From the NCBI RefSeq assembly GCF_003018115.1, contig NZ_CP027457.1: a stretch of 64,000 bases of DNA; one strand, written 5' to 3'. Source of the DNA: Escherichia coli (GTDB lineage: Bacteria; Pseudomonadota; Gammaproteobacteria; Enterobacterales; Enterobacteriaceae). The translations under genes and the position numbers were made by a program. Shown here in pieces: positions 13,315 to 55,486 of the stretch (position 1 is its first letter; each line of letters starts with the position of its first letter). The notes under the pieces are model-generated. The model was not told where the DNA came from. It searched no databases and saw only the letters and a list, made by a program, of their open reading frames with translations.

Positions 13315-14604
13315 ATGACAACGGACGATCTTGCCTTTGACCAACGCCATATCTGGCACCCATACACATCCATGACCTCCCCGTTACCGGTTTATCCGGT
13401 GGCAAGCGCCGAAGGTTGCGAGCTAATTTTGTCTGATGGCAGACGCCTGGTTGACGGTATGTCGTCCTGGTGGGCGGCGATCCACGGCTACAATCACCCG
13501 CAGCTTAATGCGGCGATGAAGACGCAAATTGATGCCATGTCGCATGTGATGTTTGGCGGTATCACTCATGCGCCAGCCATTGAGCTGTGCCGCAAACTGG
13601 TGGCGATGACGCCGCAACCGCTGGAATGCGTTTTTCTCGCGGACTCCGGCTCCGTAGCGGTGGAAGTGGCGATGAAAATGGCGTTGCAGTACTGGCAGGC
13701 CAAAGGCGAAGCGCGCCAGCGTTTTCTGACCTTCCGCAATGGTTATCATGGCGATACCTTTGGCGCGATGTCGGTGTGCGATCCGGACAACTCAATGCAC
13801 AGCCTGTGGAAAGGCTATCTGCCAGAAAACTTGTTTGCTCCCGCCCCGCAAAGCCGCATGGATGGTGAATGGGATGAGCGCGATATGGTGGGCTTTGCCC
13901 GCCTGATGGCGGCGCATCGTCATGAAATCGCGGCGGTGATCATTGAACCGATTGTCCAGGGCGCAGGCGGGATGCGCATGTACCATCCGGAATGGTTAAA
14001 ACGAATCCGCAAAATGTGCGATCGCGAAGGTATCTTGCTGATTGCCGACGAGATCGCCACCGGATTTGGTCGTACCGGCAAACTGTTTGCCTGTGAACAT
14101 GCAGAAATCGCGCCGGACATTTTGTGCCTCGGTAAAGCCTTAACCGGCGGCACAATGACCCTTTCCGCCACACTCACCACGCGCGAGGTTGCAGAAACCA
14201 TCAGTAACGGCGAAGCCGGCTGCTTTATGCACGGGCCAACTTTTATGGGCAATCCGCTGGCCTGTGCGGCTGCAAACGCCAGCCTGGCGATTCTCGAATC
14301 TGGCGACTGGCAGCAACAGGTGGCGGCTATTGAAGTACAGCTGCGCGAGCAACTTGCCCCCGCCCGTGATGCCGAAATGGTTGCCGATGTGCGCGTGCTG
14401 GGGGCAATCGGCGTAGTCGAAACAACTCGTCCGGTGAATATGGCGGCGCTGCAAAAATTCTTTGTCGAACAGGGTGTCTGGATCCGGCCTTTTGGCAAAC
14501 TGATTTACCTGATGCCGCCCTATATTATTCACCCGCAACAGTTGCAGCGTCTGACCGCAGCGGTTAATCGTGCGGTGCAGGATGAAACATTTTTTTGCCA
14601 ATAA
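13315..14604 (+). CDS. bioA: Adenosylmethionine-8-amino-7-oxononanoate aminotransferase BioA
   Basis: Translation from [62 protein letters not shown]..., 429 aa. Confidence 0.95.
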
Positions 14605-14662
14605 CGGGAAGTCAGCGTGTGGGTTTCTGGCTACACTTTCTGCAAACAAGAAAGGAGGGTTT

Positions 14663-15139
14663 ATGAAACTCATCAGTAACGATCTGCGCGATGGCGATAA
14701 GTTGCCGCATCGTCATGTCTTTAACGGCATGGGTTACGATGGCGATAATATTTCACCGCATCTGGCGTGGGATGATGTTCCTGCGGGAACGAAAAGTTTT
14801 GTTGTCACCTGCTACGACCCGGATGCGCCAACCGGCTCCGGCTGGTGGCACTGGGTAGTTGTTAATTTACCCGCTGATACCCGCGTATTACCGCAAGGGT
14901 TTGGCTCTGGTCTGGTAGCAATGCCAGACGGCGTTTTGCAGACGCGTACCGATTTTGGTAAAACCGGATACGATGGCGCAGCGCCGCCGAAAGGCGAAAC
15001 CCATCGCTACATTTTTACCGTTCACGCGCTGGATGTAGAGCGTATTGATGTCGATGAAGGAGCCAGCGGCGCGATGGTCGGGTTTAACGTTCATTTCCAC
15101 TCTCTGGCAAGCGCATCGATTACCGCGATGTTTAGTTAA
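14663..15139 (+). CDS. ybhB: PEBP/YbhB family protein
   Basis: Translation MKLISNDLRDGDKLPHRHVFNGMGYDGDNISPHLAWDDVPAGTKSF..., 158 aa, RBS AAAGGAGGG upstream. Confidence 0.88.
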   Translation: MKLISNDLRDGDKLPHRHVFNGMGYDGDNISPHLAWDDVPAGTKSFVVTCYDPDAPTGSGWWHWVVVNLPADTRVLPQGFGSGLVAMPDGVLQTRTDFGKTGYDGAAPPKGETHRYIFTVHALDVERIDVDEGASGAMVGFNVHFHSLASASITAMFS

Positions 15140-15691: not shown

Positions 15692-16756
15692 CTATTTCAC
15701 AAGCATATTTTTATTATTTCTTTTGAAAACAACATTGGTTAACAACCTTATTACAGGTTTTTCTAAGTAGTAACTAAATATCATTGACGTTATTAAAGCG
15801 AAGATAATCATTGCAGCATAAAGGATAATTGCTCCTGTATAGTCGGTTATTTTATAACCAATGCATCTTAAAAAGGTTGAAAGCACAATGAAAGAAATTG
15901 TATGAATCAAATATATAGAATACGAAGCATCCCCAAGCTTCATAAGTGCTTTGTGAACAAATGATTTTTCATTGAAAGAAATATTTATTGCGCCAAGAAC
16001 ACATAAGAGAGATGGCACCCCTACGTATATAATACGCTCATCACCAACACCCCATACATTAGTCCCAACAATTAAAAATAGACCTACAGCAAAACATAAA
16101 ACTGATAGTTTTATGTTTTGAAGAATCTTTTTCTGATAAACATAGCCGCATATCATACCGAATATGAATTCAAGATGTATCGGGCTGAAAAATAATCTTT
16201 GGATAAAGTTCAAGCTGCCCCAGTTATAAAACAAGAATGTATAAGTACAGAATAGGACGCCAGTGGCAACTCTTCCATATTTACCAAAAATACAGCACAT
16301 TAATGCTAGCGACATATAGAAGTAAACTTCAAAATTTAGTGTCCAACTTATTGCATAAATGGTTTCTGCCTTCCATGATTCAGATGGGTAAAACAAAAAC
16401 ATAGCGCTTGTTACAAACTTCCTGAAAGCATCATCAGGAATCTTGCCAGTTACCATTAAGGCTATAGCATAAAGCAAAAGAGACATCCAGAATGCTGGAG
16501 CTACGCGAATTAATCTTTTAATTATAAAATCACCAATACCACGATCGCTCCTCATGCACTTTCCGATAGTTATGTACATAACCATTCCAGAAATGACGAA
16601 AAATATATCAACTCCGTACTTACCGAACTGTACGAACCCCTGATCAGGGAGAATAAGTCGCGTAGATGGAACGAAGTGGTTTACTGCTACCTTGGCATGG
16701 ATGAACACTACCATCAAGGCCGCAATGCCTCGTAAATACTGAAGCCCAATAATCAT
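15692..16756 (-). CDS. Acyltransferase-3 family membrane protein, probable O-antigen acetyltransferase (seroconversion)
   Basis: 354-aa multi-TM translation MIIGLQYLRGIAALMVVFIHAKV...; located between att and tailspike as in Sf6 oac; AT-rich. Confidence 0.7.
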   Translation of the reverse strand: MIIGLQYLRGIAALMVVFIHAKVAVNHFVPSTRLILPDQGFVQFGKYGVDIFFVISGMVMYITIGKCMRSDRGIGDFIIKRLIRVAPAFWMSLLLYAIALMVTGKIPDDAFRKFVTSAMFLFYPSESWKAETIYAISWTLNFEVYFYMSLALMCCIFGKYGRVATGVLFCTYTFLFYNWGSLNFIQRLFFSPIHLEFIFGMICGYVYQKKILQNIKLSVLCFAVGLFLIVGTNVWGVGDERIIYVGVPSLLCVLGAINISFNEKSFVHKALMKLGDASYSIYLIHTISFIVLSTFLRCIGYKITDYTGAIILYAAMIIFALITSMIFSYYLEKPVIRLLTNVVFKRNNKNMLVK

Positions 16757-16850: not shown

Positions 16851-18875
16851 TTAGTAAGCAACAAACGTTCCTGGAGATCCAGTGGCAGTGCATCGCAACC
16901 TGAATGGTGCCGTGGTTGCATTCACCAATACAAAATCCTCCCCCTTTCGCCAATAACCACCAGTTGGTATACCCTGAATCCCATTTTGACTATAACCTAA
17001 GTTGTACGTAATTTCTCTTAGGTATGGACCAATGTTTGTTTGCCAAGTTCCTGTTTCCACCCATACATTACTGTGTCGGAGTGATCTCCCCTGAAATGAA
17101 GCATTTGGTTGAGGAGTTACACCATCAACCATTAGACCAATAAATTTCATGGATCGAAGATAGCTAGGAGCTGAAGGTGAAACAGGAAATTCAAATGGCA
17201 CAGTTATTGTCGTTGTCGATAGATAATTGTTTCTGTCCCAAAATTTTATATTGATATCACCAAGATTAAACCTGTTGACATTTCTTATGTCAGCAATTCT
17301 AGAATCCATTAAAGATGGATTGTAAACAAACAAAAGATCACAATCCCCAATTGTTAAATTGTTCAAGGCTCCTTTATCACACGATAGAAACCTTACTCCC
17401 TCTATTTCTCCTGTTATTCTTCCTATAGACACCTCTTCTGCTAGAGTATTGGCGGACCTAGCATTCATAACAGACTTTGGAGTGTTACCATCTGTACCAC
17501 GAAATATATGTAAATGCTCAATATTTATTCTTGAACAATCAGCATAACTAACCGCACCAAGCCCGGTTCCGCCAACTTCAGCATATAGTATTGTCATGTT
17601 TGCATCTGTTGCACCAGCGATAGCTTCTTCACTTCCATCATAGTGGAAATAATCTATATGTATGCGACCACCTCCGTATATGCCATTGTCTGCACAATTT
17701 TTTAGATACATTCTGTTTACTGTTACTTCGATATCCTGCGCTGAATTAAGTATAGAACAACAGTCTACGGCAGATATTGAATTAATAATGTTATTTTTCG
17801 ACCCGTCAAAAAAATGCAGCAGTTGAGGCATAGAAGCATTGCTGTTACCAGTATTTACACAATTGTATCCTCTTATGACCCCAACAACATTATTGGAACC
17901 CTTGAACTGTATTCCAATTACACCAGTACCTGAACCAGATGGCGCGTAAAGCCCAGTTATATACACTGATTTAAAGGTATTGTTACTACCAGATACCCTG
18001 ATAGGCATGCAAGCTGTTTCATTGGCATCAATATTTAGATTAAAATATCCTTTTTCTTTAGTTATATTTACAATATTTCCATAAGTTGGTGATGTTGTAA
18101 TTAACTTGCCGTCATTAATACAATTAATTGAACGGGCTACAGAGGTTGTTCCTGTAAGTTTAATTGTAATCCCGTCTATCAGCACAGGACACCCAGGATA
18201 AGACATTGCAGAGTTGAATAGTTCTGTTTGGTCAACATCGCAACTATCTACAAGGCCTAAAGATTGTGCCTTAACTTCAGTTTGATATACAATAGCCTTA
18301 AGTCCATTTTCTATATCATGAATATTTGAATTATCTTGTATGCCTGAGCTAGATATTATATATACACAACTGCCACCGTCACCTTTTGAAAAAAAACCCC
18401 TCGTCTCAACAATATCGCCTTCCTTTAAATTCATATCTGATTTCATATCAGATACGGTGTCATATTTTCGACCATAATGTGATGAAAGACCTCCAATAAT
18501 AGCATATCCATTGCTACTTGATAAATCTACCCTTAGCCGGTCAGGGTCATACTTCAGCACATTAGGAAAATAGAACTGCTGTGCACCATACGCATCATAA
18601 ACAGCCATAGAATGGCCTTGCACGGTAACGAATTTGGCAATCTGTCCGTTATATACAGGGTAACCAGCAGCGTTAATGATGATTGGTTGAGAAACAGGAA
18701 CGTGAGAACCGTCTTCATTCTCTACATAAACCTGAATCTGGTTTTCAGGATTTACAGGGTCAGTGTCAATTTTACCGATATAAATTTTGCCATTGGCAAC
18801 CGCTTTAAAAGAACGCGCCATAGTGAAGAGTTGCGAAGGCATGCTTACCACAACATTTGCGGTGATATCTGACAT
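16851..18875 (-). CDS. Tailspike protein with P22 gp9-like N-terminal head-binding domain and divergent receptor-binding domain
   Basis: N-terminus [59 protein letters not shown] closely matches P22 tailspike; remainder unrelated. Confidence 0.85.
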
Positions 18876-18996
18876 TTCATTGCTCCAGACGAATGATATG
18901 ATGCAACCATGATGTGATTGCATACCGAAATGGTACTATTGAGTATTTATCCAGTAGGTTACGATGCCATTCCACCCAACTGGTGAGGCATCAAGG

Positions 18997-19263
18997 ATGT
19001 ACAGCAAATACGACGAGGCGCAGTTTCACTTGAGACTTCCGCATGAACTCCACGCGAAAATTAAGCAGCGTGCGAAGATGAATAACAGGTCGCTGAACTC
19101 AGAGATAATTGCAGCGATTGAAGAATCATTGGCTAAACAAAGCTCTGCACCAGTTTACATTGACGATGCAGAGCGTATGGCAGAACAACAATCCGATATA
19201 GTTAAGAAAATGGTTTTTGAAACGCTTAAGACCATGTATAGCAATAATAAAAAGGAAACATAG
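18997..19263 (+). CDS. mnt: Mnt-like ribbon-helix-helix repressor (immI-type)
   Basis: Translation MYSKYDEAQFHLRLPHELHAKIKQRAKMNNRSLNSEIIAAIEESLAK... resembles P22 Mnt/Arc family. Confidence 0.65.
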   Translation: MYSKYDEAQFHLRLPHELHAKIKQRAKMNNRSLNSEIIAAIEESLAKQSSAPVYIDDAERMAEQQSDIVKKMVFETLKTMYSNNKKET

Positions 19264-19333
19264 AAATCTAGTTTCCGACTAAAATGGCATTGCCTTCATG
19301 ATATCCTGTGAAAAACTAAGGAGAGTTAACCAT

Positions 19334-19819
19334 ATGAAAAAATCACTGTTAATTATCCCACTTCTGCTGGTTGGATGCGCAAAAGTAAGTGACTATCAAG
19401 CAAGTTGCGAACAACGCTATCAAAAGCTTAGCGATATGGCTAATTGCCTTGATGCCAGTGTGAAGAACGACTCACGCATGGCATCAGCACCAACACCTAA
19501 GCTGTATGTCCTTGCTGCAAAGGTGCTCGGGCAAGGTGTCGATGAAGGAAAGATAAGTGACGCACAGGCAAGACTTGAGCTTCAGAATCTTTATGTTCAA
19601 TTACAAAGCCAAGAACAAGCCCAACAAATAGCACAAAGCCAAGCATTCCAGCAGGCTTTATTGAATTATCAGGCTGTAAACACAATGCAAGCGATCGAGC
19701 AAAAAGCGCGCCAGCCTGTTATAACTCAACCTTACCCAACACGCGTTGACACATATACAAACTGCAATTCAGGATTTGGAAACACGGTAACATGCAACAG
19801 TAGCAGTAACATCAGATAA
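19334..19819 (+). CDS. Lipoprotein of unknown function (in the P22 sieA position)
   Basis: Signal peptide plus lipobox MKKSLLIIPLLLVGC; Q-rich mature region. Confidence 0.55.
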   Translation: MKKSLLIIPLLLVGCAKVSDYQASCEQRYQKLSDMANCLDASVKNDSRMASAPTPKLYVLAAKVLGQGVDEGKISDAQARLELQNLYVQLQSQEQAQQIAQSQAFQQALLNYQAVNTMQAIEQKARQPVITQPYPTRVDTYTNCNSGFGNTVTCNSSSNIR

Positions 19820-19909
19820 CAATCAGCAAAGGTATCGCCTATGCAGAGGAATACGATAAACCTCGCGTTCTACATATTTGGTTTTTGCACGTTCCTGGTG
19901 TTTGAAAGG

Positions 19910-21907
19910 CTATTCTGACAACGAATCAGACTTAGCACCCTGCGTCAGTGCATTAATCGCTTTTTGCGCTTGCTGCATGGCTTTCTCAAACGCTGTCGAT
20001 CCGCGTGGGGTGTTTGCCATTCGGAGCATTGCATTTCTGAATGGCTCGCTCTCATAGGCGCGAGTAAGAAGTCCGTAGCTTACTGCTGCGCCAGTTGTCG
20101 CCGGGTTCATTGCCGTACCATACCCAATAATGAACGGGATAGTTTGCTGCCCTGTTGGTGTTGTTACTGCCGCTTTTGCAGCCTGCTGCGTGGATTGCAG
20201 ATAGTTTTTTAATCCTTTCAGATAAGCAGCGTCCTGCCCCTTAAATGTGATGCCAGTATGGTTTTGCAGGATGTTAAGCTGCCGAAGGAACTGGTCAGGG
20301 GATCCGCCAGATTTCTCCATCGCCTTTCCAATGATGCCATTGCGCATTTGCGCCCTGCCAACACGACCAACTGAGTTATACAGCGTCTTAATTTCCGATT
20401 TGTTCTTGCTGAATAGCATGTTGTTGACAACTTCCGGCGTCAGGTCGCCTTTCATGAGAACATTCTTCAGCCTGGTATTCTTTAGTTTCGCCGCTTCGTC
20501 AGCGTAGACGGCATTGGCCTGCTGATATTTACGGAGAGTATCGTTGCCAAGATTCTGACCAATGGCACCATTGATATCGTCTGTCATTGCCTTGTAAACG
20601 CGCTGAATGGCAGCATCGGAACGGTTTGGTAACACTGGTCGTTCCCCCTTCACGTCCATTCTGAACTGGCTGCGCAGATCGCTTAATTGCTTCAAATCCA
20701 GATTTACCGGACCATCAGGACCAGCATTGCGAACAAGCTCATCACGATAGGACTGAAGTTTTGAAATAGTCTCGTTATCGGCGACCTTACCAAGCTTCTG
20801 CAGGTTAGATATTTCTGTATCAATCTGCTGAATTGCTCGAGCAGGCTGGATATTGACTCCCGCCATTGCATTCTGAACCTGCTCAAGACGGTTCCCTGCA
20901 GCACGACGAATTCCTGATGTTTTCGCTTTAAGGCTGTCAATAACAACAGCTGGATCATACTCACCGAATTTATCAGCAAATCTCTGCACCAACTGGCTTC
21001 TCGCTTCCTGTTGCGTTGCTCTCATTCCGCTTGTGCCAGCCAGAGGGATATTTTCTGCTGTAGTCTGCGCCATTTTTCCGACGCGGGAAGTTGGTTGTAA
21101 CAGGTCTGTGGTGTGCAGAGGAACTCCTTCACGCTCTGCAAATCTGATAGCCTGCTGCGCTTCTGGCGCAATAGCACCGCGAACACCACGATAAGCAGCA
21201 CCTAATCCACGTCCGGCAGCGTTAATAGCACCTCCAGCCAGCACACCAACGCCTAAATCGGTAGCGAGTGCTTCCGCATCATCTTTCGCACTATTTGCAG
21301 CAAGTGATCCAACTGCGTTTTCTGCTAGAAGGCGAGTTGCCCCCTGAGCAATTCGACCAGCAAGTGTTGGTGCCTGTACCGCCGCTCTCTCAACGCCAGC
21401 AGGAGTGAGGTAAGGCAATGCTTCAGCAAATACCCTTCCCTCTGTCGTTTGTGGAGTCAGCGCACCTTGCTGAAGGCCAAAGTCCTGCTCTAATCCCTGC
21501 GTTGTTACTCGTGGTGCTGGTTGATATGTACCATCGCCAATGCCGAGTTTACCGCCAGCCCAAGCCGCCGCGCTTGTTACAGCATCGGCAACTGATGCAG
21601 GTATGTTTGCCACGTTCACGCCAGCCTGCACCAGTCCACGACCAGTCTCTTTTACTGCTTCACCAAGATCAGACATAAATCCACTTTGCTGTGGTTGTTG
21701 CTGTGCTACTGGTTGTTGTGTCTCCACTGGCTGCACAGATGGCAATGGATAGGCAGCATAGAAAGCTTGCTTAGCCTGCTCTGCATTTTCTCCGGCTTGC
21801 GGGGCCACGACTTCATTGAAGTATTGCTCCTGAGCCTGCGCTTTTTGTTCTGGTGCTAACGCCTGATACTGTGGAGAGGCGATAACATCTTTCCATGCTT
21901 TAGCCAT
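19910..21907 (-). CDS. Ejection (injection) protein, P22 gp16-like
   Basis: 665-aa protein at the end of the gp7-gp20-gp16 series; position and composition. Confidence 0.7.
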   Translation of the reverse strand: MAKAWKDVIASPQYQALAPEQKAQAQEQYFNEVVAPQAGENAEQAKQAFYAAYPLPSVQPVETQQPVAQQQPQQSGFMSDLGEAVKETGRGLVQAGVNVANIPASVADAVTSAAAWAGGKLGIGDGTYQPAPRVTTQGLEQDFGLQQGALTPQTTEGRVFAEALPYLTPAGVERAAVQAPTLAGRIAQGATRLLAENAVGSLAANSAKDDAEALATDLGVGVLAGGAINAAGRGLGAAYRGVRGAIAPEAQQAIRFAEREGVPLHTTDLLQPTSRVGKMAQTTAENIPLAGTSGMRATQQEARSQLVQRFADKFGEYDPAVVIDSLKAKTSGIRRAAGNRLEQVQNAMAGVNIQPARAIQQIDTEISNLQKLGKVADNETISKLQSYRDELVRNAGPDGPVNLDLKQLSDLRSQFRMDVKGERPVLPNRSDAAIQRVYKAMTDDINGAIGQNLGNDTLRKYQQANAVYADEAAKLKNTRLKNVLMKGDLTPEVVNNMLFSKNKSEIKTLYNSVGRVGRAQMRNGIIGKAMEKSGGSPDQFLRQLNILQNHTGITFKGQDAAYLKGLKNYLQSTQQAAKAAVTTPTGQQTIPFIIGYGTAMNPATTGAAVSYGLLTRAYESEPFRNAMLRMANTPRGSTAFEKAMQQAQKAINALTQGAKSDSLSE

Positions 21908-23295
21908 TAATCACCCCATAGTGAAGAAAAGTTACTGCTGGCTGCTGGCTGTGATACCTGTGCAGGTTGAGATTGCTTCCGCTGAGATTTACCAACATTA
22001 ACGTTATATTGTTGGTTGTAATTGTTGGTGTATTCCTGAATTTCACGAATCGACTGCTGCATAGCCTCCGGGCTTGAATAGTCAACCTGCGGCATCCCCT
22101 GAAAATACATCTTCGCTTCTGCAACGGTGTTAATACCACTGGCACCCATGTCCCTTGCTGCCGCCACACCCTGATTCTGCATTCTGCCCTGAATACGTTG
22201 TGCTGAGTTATATAACTGGCGCTGCTCTTTTCCCGTTAATCGGCTGCGAACATCAGCACCAATTGCTGGATTACCTGCACCGCCTGTCATTCCTGTCATG
22301 AAATCGAGAGCAGAAGCGTCTGCATTTGCGATCGCGTCGATATCCTTCTTCATGGCATAGTTTTGTGCTGATGCAGACGATGTTGCAGGCGCAGCGATTG
22401 AACTGGCAGGGACGCGAACCATATTCCCCTCGTTGTCGATGCCTTCGTAGAACGCATTAGCCCCAGCGCCATGAAGCTTCCCGCCTACCGTTACAGTTCT
22501 GCCATCTGATAACTGAACTGTACGCTCATCATTCCCAGCGATTCCTCTTGTTGACGCTCGCTGCATTGCCAAATCCTGACCTCGTCGCGCAGTAGAAGCA
22601 GATAAGTCCTGACCGCGCATCGTGATGTTCTGGCCTCGTGCTGTTAGCGCCTCGCCAGCCTGATTGCTGCGGATTGTCTCTGCAAGTTTCCCGCGATCAA
22701 TCTCACGACCAGCCATCTTGTCCTGAACATTGAAGTAATCAATTGGACCAAGAGCAGCCATCCCAAGGTGATCAACAAACTCACCAAATCCTGAAGGATT
22801 CTGCTGATACATCTGAGCAACGTTATTAGGGTCAACACCGACGCGCGCCAGCTCATTGGCGTTGTTTTGCAGCCATGATTGCATTGCTTCTGGAGACGAG
22901 GCCGCAAGGCGTGCGCCAGCCGCTAAGGTGCCGATAGAATTGCGCTGGTCTTCATCAATGAATCCCATGCCTTTACGAACGGATTCAATCTGGTCTGGAT
23001 ATTGAGTAGCCAACTGACGCAAAGCACCGCGATCACCAGACGCATAAGCATTAGCGTATGCCTGCTGAAATTCTTTCTGCCGCTGAGCCTGCTTTTCCTG
23101 CTGAAACACCCCCGCAATACCTGAAAGGCCTTGCAAAGCAGTCAGCCCAACATTGTTAGCGCCTGAACGCTCAATATCATTGTTCTGCCTGATAAGCTGA
23201 AGCGTATTGCCGATGTCATTTACGCTCGGAGCGTTTGAGTTGACGCCGCCGATACCAGCCAACAATCCGCCGTTTGTTCCTTGCCAAGTAGCCAT
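21907..23295 (-). CDS. Ejection protein, P22 gp20-like
   Basis: 462-aa protein; synteny with P22 gene 20. Confidence 0.7.
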
Positions 23296-23304
23296 GATTA
23301 CCCC

Positions 23305-23997
23305 TTAAAACAACGAGCCAAGCAATCCGATACCAGCACCAATGCCAGCGCCCCAAGGCGTTGATGTTCCCAAAAGACTGGCAAGACCTGCACCGGCAAT
23401 CGCACCAGACGTGCCACCGCTAATTGCAGTCTGAAGACTTGATGGTTTATTGGCATTAGCAGCGGCAAGTGCTGCACTTTGCTGTGCAATGCTGCTCATG
23501 TTGTTGGCGTATGTCTGCCCAGCGTTTGCCTGACCTTGCAGCGCACCAAGCCCAACGTTTGCCAGATTGTTGTAATTGCTCATCTGGTTTGATAACCACG
23601 ACTGACCGAGAGTCGGAGCAATCGTAGCCAGTTGATTGCTTGTGGCTGTCGAACCAAGTCCGCCAGTCGCCTCCGCAGCAGCAAGACTCTGGTAACGAGC
23701 CTGACCTGCAAGGTCTTTATACTGCTGAGAATTGTAATACTGATTAAGTGCCTGCCCCTGACCTTCTAAACTGGAAAGATTCTGAAGCTGGTTAACATAC
23801 TGCTCCGCAAGCGGCGTGAACGGAGCAAGGTTTTTCATGATCGTCTGCCACTGCTGATTTTGCAGGTCTGCGGCATACTTCTGGGCTTCTGCTGCATACT
23901 TTGCGCTTTTATCAGAGCTACCACCTTTCCCGCCTTTTTCAGGGCACCAAGGTTCCTCGCCGCGCAGTTTTCTGCCCAGCTTAAATGCATATAACAT
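23305..23997 (-). CDS. Ejection protein, P22 gp7-like
   Basis: 230-aa Q/A/N-rich protein with C-terminal hydrophobic tail; synteny. Confidence 0.7.
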   Translation of the reverse strand: MLYAFKLGRKLRGEEPWCPEKGGKGGSSDKSAKYAAEAQKYAADLQNQQWQTIMKNLAPFTPLAEQYVNQLQNLSSLEGQGQALNQYYNSQQYKDLAGQARYQSLAAAEATGGLGSTATSNQLATIAPTLGQSWLSNQMSNYNNLANVGLGALQGQANAGQTYANNMSSIAQQSAALAAANANKPSSLQTAISGGTSGAIAGAGLASLLGTSTPWGAGIGAGIGLLGSLF

Positions 23998-52801: not shown

Positions 52802-53020
52802 ATGTACTTGACACTTCAGGAGTGGAACGCACGCCAGCGACGCCCAAGAAGCCTTGAAACAGTTCGTCGATGGGTGCGCGAATGCAGGATATTCCCACCA
52901 CCGGTTAAGGATGGAAGAGAGTATCTGTTCCACGAATCAGCGGTAAAGGTTGACTTAAATCGACCAGTAACAGGTAGCCTTTTGAAGAGGATCAGAAATG
53001 GGAAGAAGGCGAAGTCATGA
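52802..53020 (+). CDS. xis: Excisionase Xis (lambda-type)
   Basis: 72-aa translation MYLTLQEWNARQRRPRSLETVRRWVRECRIFPPPVKDGREYLFHESAVKVDL... matches lambda Xis. Confidence 0.95.
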   Translation: MYLTLQEWNARQRRPRSLETVRRWVRECRIFPPPVKDGREYLFHESAVKVDLNRPVTGSLLKRIRNGKKAKS

Positions 53021-54068
53021 GCGCCGGGATTTACCCCCTAACCTTTATATAAGAAACAATGGATATTACTGCTACAGGGACCCAAGGACGGGTAAAGAGT
53101 TCGGATTAGGCAGAGACAGGAGGATAGCAATCACTGAAGCTATACAGGCCAACATTGAGTTATTTTCAGGACACAAACACAAGCCTCTGACAGCGAGAAT
53201 CAACAGTGATAATTCTGTTACGTTACATTCATGGCTTGATCGCTACGAAAAAATCCTCGCCAGCAGAGGAATCAAGCAGAAGACACTCATAAATTACATG
53301 AGCAAAATTAAAGCAATAAGGAGGGGGCTGCCTGATGTTCCACTTGAAGACATCACCACAAAAGAAATTGCGGCAATGCTCAATGGATACATAGACGAGG
53401 GCAAGGCGGCATCAGCCAAGTTAATCAGATCAACACTGAGCGATGCATTCCGAGAGGCTATAGCTGAAGGCCATATAACAACAAACCCGGTCGCTGCTAC
53501 TCGCGCAGCAAAATCAGAGGTAAGGAGATCAAGGCTTACGGCTGACGAATACCTGAAAATTTATCAAGCAGCAGAATCATCACCATGTTGGTTAAGACTT
53601 GCAATGGAACTGGCTGTTGTTACCGGACAGCGAGTTGGTGATTTATGCGAAATGAAGTGGTCTGATATCGTAGATGGATATCTTTATGTCGAGCAAAGCA
53701 AAACAGGCGTAAAAATTGCCATCCCAACAGCATTGCATGTTGATGCTCTCGGAATATCAATGAAGGAAACACTTGATAAATGCAAAGAGATTCTTGGCGG
53801 AGAAACCATAATTGCATCTACTCGTCGTGAACCGCTTTCATCCGGCACAGTATCAAGGTATTTTATGCGCGCACGAAAAGCATCAGGTCTTTCCTTCGAA
53901 GGGGATCCGCCTACCTTTCACGAGTTGCGCAGTTTGTCTGCAAGACTCTATGAGAAGCAGATAAGCGATAAGTTTGCTCAACATCTTCTCGGGCATAAGT
54001 CGGACACCATGGCATCACAGTATCGTGATGACAGAGGCAGGGAGTGGGACAAAATTGAAATCAAATAA
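52998..54068 (+). CDS. int: Integrase Int (tyrosine recombinase, lambda-type)
   Basis: 356-aa translation MGRRRSHERRDLPPNLYIRNNGYYCYRDPRTGKEFGLGRDRRIAITEAIQANIELF... matches lambda Int. Confidence 0.97.
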   Translation: MGRRRSHERRDLPPNLYIRNNGYYCYRDPRTGKEFGLGRDRRIAITEAIQANIELFSGHKHKPLTARINSDNSVTLHSWLDRYEKILASRGIKQKTLINYMSKIKAIRRGLPDVPLEDITTKEIAAMLNGYIDEGKAASAKLIRSTLSDAFREAIAEGHITTNPVAATRAAKSEVRRSRLTADEYLKIYQAAESSPCWLRLAMELAVVTGQRVGDLCEMKWSDIVDGYLYVEQSKTGVKIAIPTALHVDALGISMKETLDKCKEILGGETIIASTRREPLSSGTVSRYFMRARKASGLSFEGDPPTFHELRSLSARLYEKQISDKFAQHLLGHKSDTMASQYRDDRGREWDKIEIK

Positions 54069-54202: not shown

Positions 54203-55486
54203 GTGAACACATTTTCAGTTTCCCGTCTGGCGCTGGCATTGGCTTTTGGCGTGACGCTGACCGCCTGTAGCTCAACACCACCCGATCAACGTCCTTCTGA
54301 TCAAACTGCGCCTGGTACCTCTTCTCGCCCGATTCTGTCGGCAAAAGAAGCGCAGAATTTCGATGCTCAACACTATTATGCATCCCTGACACCAGGTGCT
54401 GCAGCGTGGAATCCGTCCCCGATAACCCTGCCTGCGCAACCTGACTTTGTTGTCGGCCCGGCGGGTACTCAAGGTGTAACGCATACCACGATTCAGGCGG
54501 CGGTAGATGCGGCAATTATCAAGCGCACCAACAAGCGCCAGTATATTGCCGTGATGCCTGGTGAGTATCAGGGAACGGTGTATGTCCCTGCTGCTCCAGG
54601 TGGAATTACTCTGTACGGTACAGGTGAAAAACCGATTGATGTGAAGATTGGGCTTTCCCTTGATGGGGGCATGAGCCCTGCCGACTGGCGTCACGACGTC
54701 AACCCGCGCGGCAAATATATGCCAGGTAAACCAGCGTGGTATATGTACGATAGCTGCCAGCGCAAACGCAGCGACAGTATCGGTGTTCTGTGTTCTGCGG
54801 TCTTCTGGTCACAAAACAATGGCCTGCAACTGCAAAATCTGACCATCGAAAACACGCTGGGCGATAGCGTAGATGCAGGTAACCATCCGGCGGTGGCACT
54901 GCGTACTGACGGTGACCAGGTACAGATTAACAACGTTAACATTCTCGGTCGTCAGAACACCTTCTTTGTCACCAACAGCGGTGTGCAGAACCGTCTGGAA
55001 ACGAATCGTCAGCCGCGTACGCTGGTGACCAACAGCTACATTGAAGGGGATGTGGATATCGTTTCTGGTCGCGGCGCAGTGGTGTTCGATAACACCGAAT
55101 TCCGCGTGGTGAACTCACGTACTCAGCAAGAAGCGTATGTGTTTGCACCGGCTACGCTGTCCAACATCTATTACGGTTTCCTCGCCGTAAACAGCCGTTT
55201 CAATGCTTCCGGTGATGGCGTGGCGCAACTGGGCCGCTCGCTGGATGTTGATGCCAATACCAACGGTCAGGTGGTGATCCGTGATAGCGCCATCAACGAA
55301 GGTTTTAACACGGTTAAACCGTGGGGCGATGCGGTGATCTCTAATCGTCCGTTTGCGGGTAATACCGGCAGCGTTGACGATAGCGACGAAATACAGCGCA
55401 ATCTGAATGACACTAACTACAACCGCATGTGGGAATACAATAACCGCGGCGTGGGTAGCAAAGTGGTTGCAGAGGCGAAGAAGTAA
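54203..55486 (+). CDS. ybhC: Pectinesterase-like outer membrane lipoprotein YbhC
   Basis: 427 aa; signal peptide plus lipobox LTAC; right-handed beta-helix-like repeats. Confidence 0.85.
   Translation: MNTFSVSRLALALAFGVTLTACSSTPPDQRPSDQTAPGTSSRPILSAKEAQNFDAQHYYASLTPGAAAWNPSPITLPAQPDFVVGPAGTQGVTHTTIQAAVDAAIIKRTNKRQYIAVMPGEYQGTVYVPAAPGGITLYGTGEKPIDVKIGLSLDGGMSPADWRHDVNPRGKYMPGKPAWYMYDSCQRKRSDSIGVLCSAVFWSQNNGLQLQNLTIENTLGDSVDAGNHPAVALRTDGDQVQINNVNILGRQNTFFVTNSGVQNRLETNRQPRTLVTNSYIEGDVDIVSGRGAVVFDNTEFRVVNSRTQQEAYVFAPATLSNIYYGFLAVNSRFNASGDGVAQLGRSLDVDANTNGQVVIRDSAINEGFNTVKPWGDAVISNRPFAGNTGSVDDSDEIQRNLNDTNYNRMWEYNNRGVGSKVVAEAKK

Follow-up and report, generated by a model that had tools for sequence, protein, structure and literature searches.

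A lipoprotein gene at the sieA position of a P22-like Escherichia coli prophage as a candidate envelope-level exclusion cassette

No system other than SieA is known to prevent short-tailed phages from injecting their DNA, and SieA is carried by only a third of the sequenced P22-like phages (PMC10883804). What, then, does a P22-like prophage keep between genes 16 and 9, where P22 has sieA (PMC10883804), when sieA itself is missing? The 64,000-nucleotide stretch of E. coli DNA analyzed here (contig NZ_CP027457.1; its whole length is called the window) contains such a case. A P22-like prophage of the Lederbergvirus type, the late genes of which lie on the minus strand, spans ~15.2–54.1 kb of the window, and between its gp16-type ejection protein gene and its tailspike gene, opposite to the late strand, lie a gene for an Mnt/Arc-type ribbon-helix-helix (RHH) repressor and a gene for a small lipoprotein (working name lpp-sie, in the following lpp; Table 1). 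Both are found where an original prediction, made from the sequence alone, had placed them. The lipobox and the Gln-rich character described for the lipoprotein were also confirmed, whereas its length is 161 instead of 162 aa. The absence of arc and ant held as well: tblastn searches across the entire window gave no match for arc, ant, sieA (types A and B), orf59a or the HK620-type gp14, and no Rfam RNA family, including any sar-like RNA, was found within 18500–20200. As set out below, lpp is quite possibly a prophage-expressed allele of the sieA cassette that acts in envelope-level exclusion by interfering with DNA delivery by incoming phages, a reading that we put forward tentatively.

At the nucleotide level, lpp replaces sieA ORF-for-ORF (open reading frame, ORF) in sibling prophages, an observation that is new here. 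The loci L067 (gp16, lpp, orf59a, mnt; 1606 bp) and L080 (gp16, sieA, orf59a, mnt; 1607 bp) have flanks that are 97–99% identical and differ solely in a block of ~550 bp holding the swapped ORF, and in a further locus, L086, lpp takes the place of sieA within a complete immI region of the P22 type (orf59a, mnt, arc, ant). Together with a leader sequence common to both genes, these loci bear out the original proposal that the lipoprotein gene lies at the P22 sieA location. In a census of IMG/VR, which covered 80 loci whose tailspike head-binding domain is closely related, lpp was present in the slot 13 times and a SieA homolog seven times, and both together were never observed. In all close relatives examined (at least seven enterobacterial genera), lpp was furthermore the gene next to the 3′ end of gp16, oriented convergently to it, and lay in the interval that gp16 and the tailspike gene enclose. 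These relatives comprise the phages VSe13, 720R6, Gally and Proteus Brookers, prophages of Yersinia ruckeri, Providencia, Klebsiella aerogenes and Morganella, and one metagenomic contig. Among 50,697 sequenced phage records, the lipoprotein family occurs in five Lederbergviruses only. The extent of the cassette in the window was defined by blastn against the locus L009, which holds mnt only: besides the ORF and its leader, it comprises the final 11 codons of mnt and a 3′ flank of 20 bp, and the slot measures 475 bp in L009 compared with 1038 bp in loci of the window type.

The leader shared with sieA directly precedes lpp in the window (Table 1). For L067 and L086 the similarity reaches further, since ~95 bp upstream of lpp, including the annotated promoter PsieA, differ from the sequence upstream of sieA in P22 by a single mismatch. 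A fragment comprising sieA and 85 bp of upstream DNA, placed ectopically, is sufficient to exclude P22 (Leavitt et al., PMC10883804). The leader may act as a promoter in the window as well, with the extended −10-like TGnTATCCT element and the annotated hexamers both being candidates. A consensus promoter and terminator scan yielded no more matches than shuffled sequence and found no terminator between mnt and lpp. Since no terminator is predicted after mnt, co-transcription of lpp with mnt appears likely.

A search of IMG/VR with the leader revealed at least 120 loci (L093–L212), and the following counts refer to the 120 loci listed. In all 113 loci that could be scored, the geometry of the leader is identical, i.e., it lies in the slot between gp16 and the tailspike gene and points against the late operon. 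At least 12 unrelated ORF families follow the leader. The most common one is lpp (38 of the 120 loci), followed by a 109-aa protein with a transmembrane segment plus a coiled coil (20, including two truncated copies), a 129-aa secreted protein (phrog_2651; 18), a second family of 109-aa transmembrane-plus-coiled-coil proteins (13), SieA type A (10), a 62-aa membrane protein (6), a 75-aa and a 106-aa membrane protein (5 each) and four families found once each. Judged from the sequences, 11 of the 12 families carry a signal peptide or, at the N-terminus, a transmembrane segment. Two of the 12 are SieA types (A and B), and the sole characterized occupants linked to the leader are exclusion proteins. 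Apart from the SieA types, none of the eight cassette families scanned against PHROG and Pfam had an assigned function. Upstream of the leader at least four different sequence contexts occur, which in the window is the 3′ end of mnt. Taken together, the sieA slot behaves as a leader-anchored cassette hotspot for small envelope proteins, which would be swapped by recombination.

The variability of this region as such has been noted before. Under the name "ant moron", the insert that separates genes 16 and 9 was reported in 2008 (Villafane et al., PMC2629481), and it is in rapid flux, with ten types in sixteen genomes; the slot in the window is the same variable insert. E. coli B7A, which is included in Figure 3 of PMC2629481, has the mnt-lpp arrangement at 96.9% identity. 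In its available part, that study treats the slot genes differing from P22 as unrelated unknowns. As far as found, the leader-anchored cassettes and the bias toward envelope proteins are new here.

The lipoprotein gene itself is real and under strong purifying selection, and it is no chance ORF. Its ATG is preceded at a distance of 10 nt by AAGGAG, and it encodes a single N-terminal lipoprotein signal peptide (MKKSLLIIPLLLVG, followed by the lipidated residue Cys15) with a positively charged n-region, a hydrophobic h-region, the lipobox LVGC, which conforms to [LVI][ASTVI][GAS]C, and Ala at position +2. The lipoprotein gene was found in 185 of 5,426 complete E. coli genomes (3.4%) and is labeled "hypothetical protein" in all E. 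coli matches listed. Close homologs form 92 clusters, and all named ones belong to Enterobacterales (Escherichia, Citrobacter, Serratia, Klebsiella, Cronobacter, Pectobacterium, Yersinia, Morganella, Providencia and Tatumella, in addition to phages of Salmonella and Proteus). In an alignment of 37 homologs that are 50–89% identical, every sequence has the lipid-carrying Cys along with four others, namely C25, C38 and a pair at the C-terminus that includes C154. A standard lipobox is recognizable in 36 of them, and the +2 residue is Ala in 34, Val in two and never Asp. The N-domain is conserved in this alignment, while the C-terminal tip is variable. The median pairwise ratio of nonsynonymous to synonymous substitution rates (dN/dS) is 0.05 for 24 distinct full-length copies. 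Asp at +2 is the Lol avoidance signal, and a lipoprotein with another residue at this position is released to the outer membrane. By this rule, the product of lpp is predicted to be sorted to the outer membrane.

Following the signal peptide, the lipoprotein consists of a disulfide-containing helical domain (residues ~18–98), a Gln-rich helix (15 Gln in 44 residues), a Pro-rich linker and a C-terminal hairpin with a Cys loop, and the prediction for the mature part is a helical, soluble protein. In the AlphaFold2 model, residues 20–98 reach values of 82–89 in the predicted local distance difference test, the remainder being low. A heptad analysis of the Gln-rich helix revealed no hydrophobic register, and a classical Lpp-like coiled coil is therefore unsupported. 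Over its full length, the protein matches phrog_6067 ("unknown function") with an E-value of 1e-109. Neither Pfam nor NCBIfam gave a match, the sole sub-threshold one being GspK with 18.8 bits against a cut-off of 130, and PADLOC-DB contained no family matching the lipoprotein or Mnt at E-values up to 1. A profile search of the Protein Data Bank (PDB) remained without match and Foldseek searches of PDB and BFVD without any hit of E < 0.3. The comparison of profiles and structures, which had been suggested as a way to a function, thus provided no fold or PDB match from which one could be assigned.

When compared with known systems, lpp resembles P22 sieA in lying in the same slot beside gp16, against the late operon and behind the same block of leader and ribosome-binding site. 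In addition, the two are mutually exclusive alleles, are prophage-expressed and encode envelope products (predicted in the case of lpp). Their products, however, share no sequence similarity, with SieA being phrog_7745. SieA sits in the inner membrane, with 3–4 transmembrane segments and the motif FxRYPxEAxxFNK, whereas the lpp product has a lipobox signal peptide, a predicted outer-membrane anchor and a helical, soluble mature part. Exclusion has been demonstrated for SieA and is, for the lpp product, a proposal. Like Llp of T5 and Cor of phi80, N15 and HK022, it is a small phage lipoprotein with disulfides, and the outer membrane is the predicted compartment. Still, it is not homologous to either; the match to the PHROG Cor family (phrog_1119; E-value 0.035) covers the signal peptide only, and no PDB or fold match was obtained. 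FhuA is the protein blocked by Llp and Cor, whereas O-antigen plus other components are what P22-like phages use. The lpp product is two to three times larger than Llp and Cor and has a long Gln-rich helix as well as a Cys loop at its C-terminus. Bor of lambda and TraT of the F plasmid are lipoproteins conferring serum resistance or surface exclusion. Similar to these, lpp would encode a prophage-borne outer-membrane lipoprotein expressed in the carrier state, but it has no homology to them in Pfam, NCBIfam or PHROGs. The lpp product thus stands outside the SieA, Cor and Llp families and may nevertheless work like them.

Expression in a lysogen is documented for the ortholog of lpp in the Gally prophage of E. 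coli LF82 (GALLYPH_13/LF82_138), the product of which is 96.9% identical to the window lipoprotein, by published RNA-seq values (S1 Table of PMC9928086). After overnight growth in lysogeny broth (LB), LF82_138 had a normalized count of 70, compared with a prophage median of 15.6 and 727 for the C2 repressor, and it was the second-highest Gally gene in this medium (PMC9928086). Expressed as log2(fpkm+5), with fpkm denoting fragments per kilobase per million, its level was 6.0–6.3 in LB, 7.9–8.2 in the bacteria-only samples B1 and B6, 10.3 in macrophages at 1 h and 8.5–8.7 at 6 h, and the ejection genes adjoining it stayed at background throughout (PMC9928086). The induction in macrophages calculated from this table is ~16-fold, the log2 value rising from 6.1 to 10.3. 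As LF82_138 is transcribed while the ejection genes are silent, its expression in the lysogen is independent of the late operon. A gene silent in the lysogen, which would have spoken against the original prediction, is thus not what was found for this ortholog. The regions upstream of lpp in Gally and in the window are alike from the ribosome-binding site onward only.

A second lipoprotein gene occurs in the same slot of Gally, on the late strand: gp14 (L007, 4447–4866, minus strand) encodes an unrelated 139-aa lipoprotein (MKRIIGVVAGAILLSGC...; phrog_6823, weak PEGA match), which is also present in 720R6 and in 10 of the 80 census loci and is absent from the window. In the LF82 macrophage samples its transcript reaches a log2 value of ~11, exceeded among the Gally genes by the C2 repressor only. 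Judged from the S1 Table of PMC9928086, the right end of such prophages (equivalent to window 16851–19819) therefore has promoters that are independent of the late operon, one of them for the tailspike gene.

Distant relatives of the lipoprotein were also identified. A profile search of 1.84 billion representative proteins returned 234 clusters at E ≤ 1e-3, 95 of them at E ≤ 1e-10. These remote members are lipoproteins, mostly of 100–180 aa, with the same design as the lpp product. A lipobox is followed by C-A-T-V-x-x-Y-Q-x-x-C-E, C-L, K-L-Y-x-L-K-A and D-A-R-V-E-L-Q-x-L-Y-V, a short linker and a C-terminal loop of the form T-x-C-x3-G-N-x3-C-x-[ST]-[Y/R/F]. None of them has a Pfam domain or an informative name, and a search with the remote alignment gave unnamed metagenomic proteins only. 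The genomic contexts of eight remote loci were read, and they show that distant relatives are carried on mobile elements. Two (L213, 416–811; L215, 7001–7390) lie beside genes for giant polyvalent proteins of the injected type with more than 3,000 aa (ddrB-ParB, LPD1, ART-PolyVal), two (L219 and L220) in an island with integrase, AlpA and primase genes beside a T5orf172/MUG113 gene, one (L218) in an island that also contains genes for a small terminase of the Sf6 type, for a Schlafen/AlbA_2 ATPase and for an integrase, and one (L217) beside a DNA-pol-III-theta gene of the kind found at the ends of P22-like prophages; the surroundings of the remaining two (L214 and L216) are ordinary chromosomal ones. 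The lipoprotein gene of L213 directly adjoins the giant gene in convergent orientation, which echoes the arrangement of lpp and gp16.

In the mechanism that we propose, lpp would be expressed from the prophage, the most likely routes being co-transcription with mnt and/or the retained leader of the sieA type. Its product would be exported, receive its lipid at Cys15 and be taken by Lol to the outer membrane, where it would reside in the inner leaflet. The disulfide-bonded helical domain would then sit beneath the outer membrane, with the Gln-rich helix, the Pro-rich linker and the variable Cys-loop tip reaching into the periplasm. There the lipoprotein would most likely interfere with the delivery of DNA by superinfecting phages. 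It might hinder the gp7/gp20/gp16 ejection conduit from assembling at its outer-membrane end or, alternatively, alter an outer-membrane component needed by the phage, and it could in this way be the outer-membrane counterpart of the inner-membrane protein SieA. Periplasm-facing outer-membrane lipoproteins that exclude phages are known in Llp of T5 and Cor of phi80 and N15. SieA targets the gp16/gp20 conduit (PMC10883804). Exclusion is favored as the function of lpp because of the replacement of sieA, the common leader, the mutual exclusivity of the two genes, the envelope character of the other cassettes, the lysogen expression, the conserved signals, the purifying selection, the mobile relatives and the precedent.

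Several points weigh against this reading. A slot and a leader in common with sieA show shared regulation and recombination history, not shared function. The −35 region of P22 is absent from the window, so that a leader promoter is putative there. By tblastn, PHROG, PADLOC, PDB and Foldseek comparisons, the lipoprotein has no sequence or fold similarity to known exclusion or defense proteins, and a literature search retrieved no functional study of the family or of the accession WP_000749291. In LB, LF82_138 was not classed as a moron, being 4.5-fold above background with a cut-off of 5-fold (PMC9928086). The chromosomal contexts of L214 and L216 imply that the fold may have a housekeeping role in the envelope. 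Finally, the induction of the ortholog in cell-culture medium and macrophages fits a role in host adaptation equally well.

Such a role is the alternative that survives best, even though we regard it as unlikely. The lipoprotein would in this case be the product of a host-adaptation or virulence moron that alters the envelope of the lysogen, e.g., with regard to stress, serum or macrophage survival as known for Bor and TraT, and would have no anti-phage role. It would agree with the 6- to 40-fold induction, independent of the late operon, of the Gally ortholog, gp14, mnt and the tailspike gene in macrophages and culture medium, with the non-mobile contexts of the two distant relatives just mentioned and with the carriage of the family by gut and pathogenic Enterobacterales. 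It does not account for the fact that the position of lpp is tied to the sieA cassette and its leader, nor for the several distant relatives on satellites or islands beside defense-like genes. Moreover, no virulence phenotype is on record, and deletion of mnt in Gally (mnt, not lpp) left macrophage survival unchanged.

It is considerably less probable that the lipoprotein serves the lytic cycle, in which it would, like Llp of T5, inactivate the receptor or entry route on the infected cell, on debris and on vesicles, with protection of the lysogen being a side effect. The predicted mechanism would be the same as for exclusion and only the beneficiary different. The location of lpp inside the late region would suit this explanation, as would the inactivation of P22-like virions by outer-membrane vesicles that is reported in the available part of PMC7541932. 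However, lpp is transcribed against the late operon, and its ortholog is expressed in the uninduced lysogen.

An RHH gene followed by a small ORF, with a gap of 70 bp in the window and of 17–24 bp in Brookers and L091, also recalls type II toxin-antitoxin modules, in which the RHH protein would be the antitoxin and lpp the toxin. This is highly implausible and was rejected, since the pairing of lpp and mnt is not obligate. No mnt adjoins lpp in Yersinia (L005) and Morganella (L090). Elsewhere a third gene lies between the two, namely one on the opposite strand in Gally and VSe13, orf59a in L067 and L086 and a Bro-N gene in Klebsiella, and mnt occurs without lpp in 19 of the 80 census loci. In addition, the RHH protein has the C-terminal domain of Mnt and is thus a full Mnt, and the product of lpp is an exported lipoprotein. 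Equally improbable is a functionless hitch-hiker or decaying ORF in a recombination hotspot, an idea for which the rapid flux of the region speaks (PMC2629481) and against which stand the dN/dS of 0.05 over 24 distinct copies, the invariance of the Cys residues, lipobox and motifs from E. coli to Proteus at 50–60% identity and the 234 remote clusters with the same architecture. A role as a spanin or in lysis was rejected, as lpp is expressed in lysogens and lies far from the lysis genes, which by synteny are presumably located at ~34.7–36.5 kb.

Next to lpp, the slot contains a genuine Mnt homolog. Its N-terminal Arc domain matches PF03869 (E-value 8.7e-15; 54.7 bits, cut-off 20.4) and its C-terminal coiled-coil (tetramerization/oligomerization) domain matches Repressor_Mnt (PF11423; E-value 2.5e-11; 43.5 bits, cut-off 20.9). 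The protein is 47% identical to P22 Mnt over 76 residues, and DAERxAxxQSxxVKKMVFxTLK is common to both, whereas the DNA-contacting β-strand reads QFHLRL in the window and HFNFRM in P22. The "immI-like corner" of the original prediction is therefore correct insofar as a bona fide Mnt is present. Without arc and ant, it represents an Mnt-alone arrangement, which is common among P22-like phages, and mnt is the sole slot gene in 19 of the 80 census loci.

The operator search that had been proposed for Mnt delivered a candidate at the matching position, although its context lacks the ant gene. It was found by comparison with the annotated Pant/Omnt region of P22. There, CTCAATAG comes after the −10 element of Pant and precedes the operator GTCCACGGTGGAC, given here as the 13 central bp of a 17-bp palindrome. 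On the tailspike strand of the window, TAAATA-CTCAATAG is followed by TACCATTTCGGTA, and the pattern of this candidate operator occurs twice in the window compared with 0.25 occurrences expected by chance. The changed residues of the β-strand together with the changed palindrome let us expect an operator specificity different from that of P22. A second palindrome abutting the candidate operator (one match in the window, 0.03 expected) is kept in Sf101 and in loci with mnt only and could be a second operator or a hairpin in the 5′ untranslated region. Similar to immI of P22, the window thus combines an Mnt homolog, divergence from the promoter region on the tailspike side and the layout of CTCAATAG plus palindrome. 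Differences to P22 consist in the lack of arc, ant and sar and in the altered β-strand and palindrome. In the absence of ant, the target of Mnt is presumably a relic promoter directed toward the tailspike gene together with the promoter of mnt itself. Between mnt and lpp, a late-strand gene encodes a short "antirepressor" in VSe13 (L001, 3373–3663) and a Bro-N domain protein in Klebsiella (L089, 3891–4655); these genes indicate that the module exists with alternative antirepressor-like genes even without a P22-type ant.

Beyond the slot, the E. coli chromosome at 13.2–15.1 kb of the window carries a bioA-like gene and ybhB of the PEBP family. The prophage is flanked by ybhB and a ybhC-like pectinesterase gene, i.e., it occupies the classical lambda attB locus, and its integrase has a lambda-type Arm-DNA-binding domain. 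In E. coli ZY22049, a close relative of the prophage late region sits at a tRNA-Arg gene with IntS. At the prophage end, the tailspike gene adjoins an Acyl_transf_3 gene that probably encodes an O-antigen acetylase and hence a further function in lysogenic conversion or exclusion. In relatives, the gp16-type gene carries the annotation "DNA transfer protein"; in the window it delimits the slot on the left and runs convergently to lpp.

Table 1. Positions of the features of the sieA slot and its surroundings in the 64-kb window
Feature	Position	Strand	Remarks
ybhB	14570–15139		prophage flank
Acyl_transf_3 gene	15692–16756	-	E-value 2.9e-30
Tailspike gene	16851–18878	-	Pfam Head_binding, E-value 1.9e-67; true start 18878 (MSDITAN); right boundary of the variable slot
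Second palindrome	18901–18923	.	ATGCAACCATGATGTGATTGCAT, 23 bp; directly upstream of the tailspike ribosome-binding site
Candidate Mnt operator	18923–18935	.	palindrome TACCGAAATGGTA; same place as O-mnt in P22, right after CTCAATAG
mnt	18997–19263	+	88-aa Mnt-family RHH repressor
Lipoprotein cassette	19230–19839	+	610 bp where L009 has 47 bp (blastn)
sieA-type leader	19297–19323	+	CATGATATCCTGTGAAAAACTAAGGAG; ends in ribosome-binding site; 23 of 27 bases equal the sequence directly upstream of P22 sieA
Extended −10-like TGnTATCCT	19299–19307		within the leader
lpp (lpp-sie)	19334–19819	+	161-aa prolipoprotein
gp16-type ejection protein gene	19910–21907	-	33% identity to P22 gp16 over 582 aa
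gp20-type ejection gene	21907–23295	-	Inj_translocase, E-value 7e-78
gp7 gene	23305–23997	-	neighbor of the gp20-type gene
Integrase gene	52998–54068		prophage
ybhC-like pectinesterase gene	54203–55486		prophage flank

As a more far-reaching idea, which at present is speculative and less than likely to hold, the sieA slot is a leader-anchored hotspot in which a conserved block of ~27 nt, comprising the promoter/5′ untranslated region and the ribosome-binding site, permits unrelated small envelope proteins to be exchanged by recombination, and the lpp family, widespread on mobile elements, blocks the outer-membrane or periplasmic end of ejection conduits, those formed by gp7/gp20/gp16 as well as those linked to giant polyvalent proteins. 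If this were true, lpp would encode the first inhibitor acting on the podovirus ejectosome from the outer-membrane side, and the slot would be a ready-made catalog of new exclusion proteins. If lpp instead proves to be a fitness factor induced in macrophages, it would be relevant to the biology of adherent-invasive E. coli. The cassette series allows a cheap and direct experimental test, as in the published single-copy assay of sieA. Should the cassettes exclude phages, this would account for the protection of the host by P22-like prophages without sieA, would provide genetic handles on the little-understood outer-membrane and periplasmic steps of podovirus DNA delivery and would have a bearing on the host range of phages used for therapy in E. 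coli, Salmonella, Klebsiella, Serratia and Proteus.

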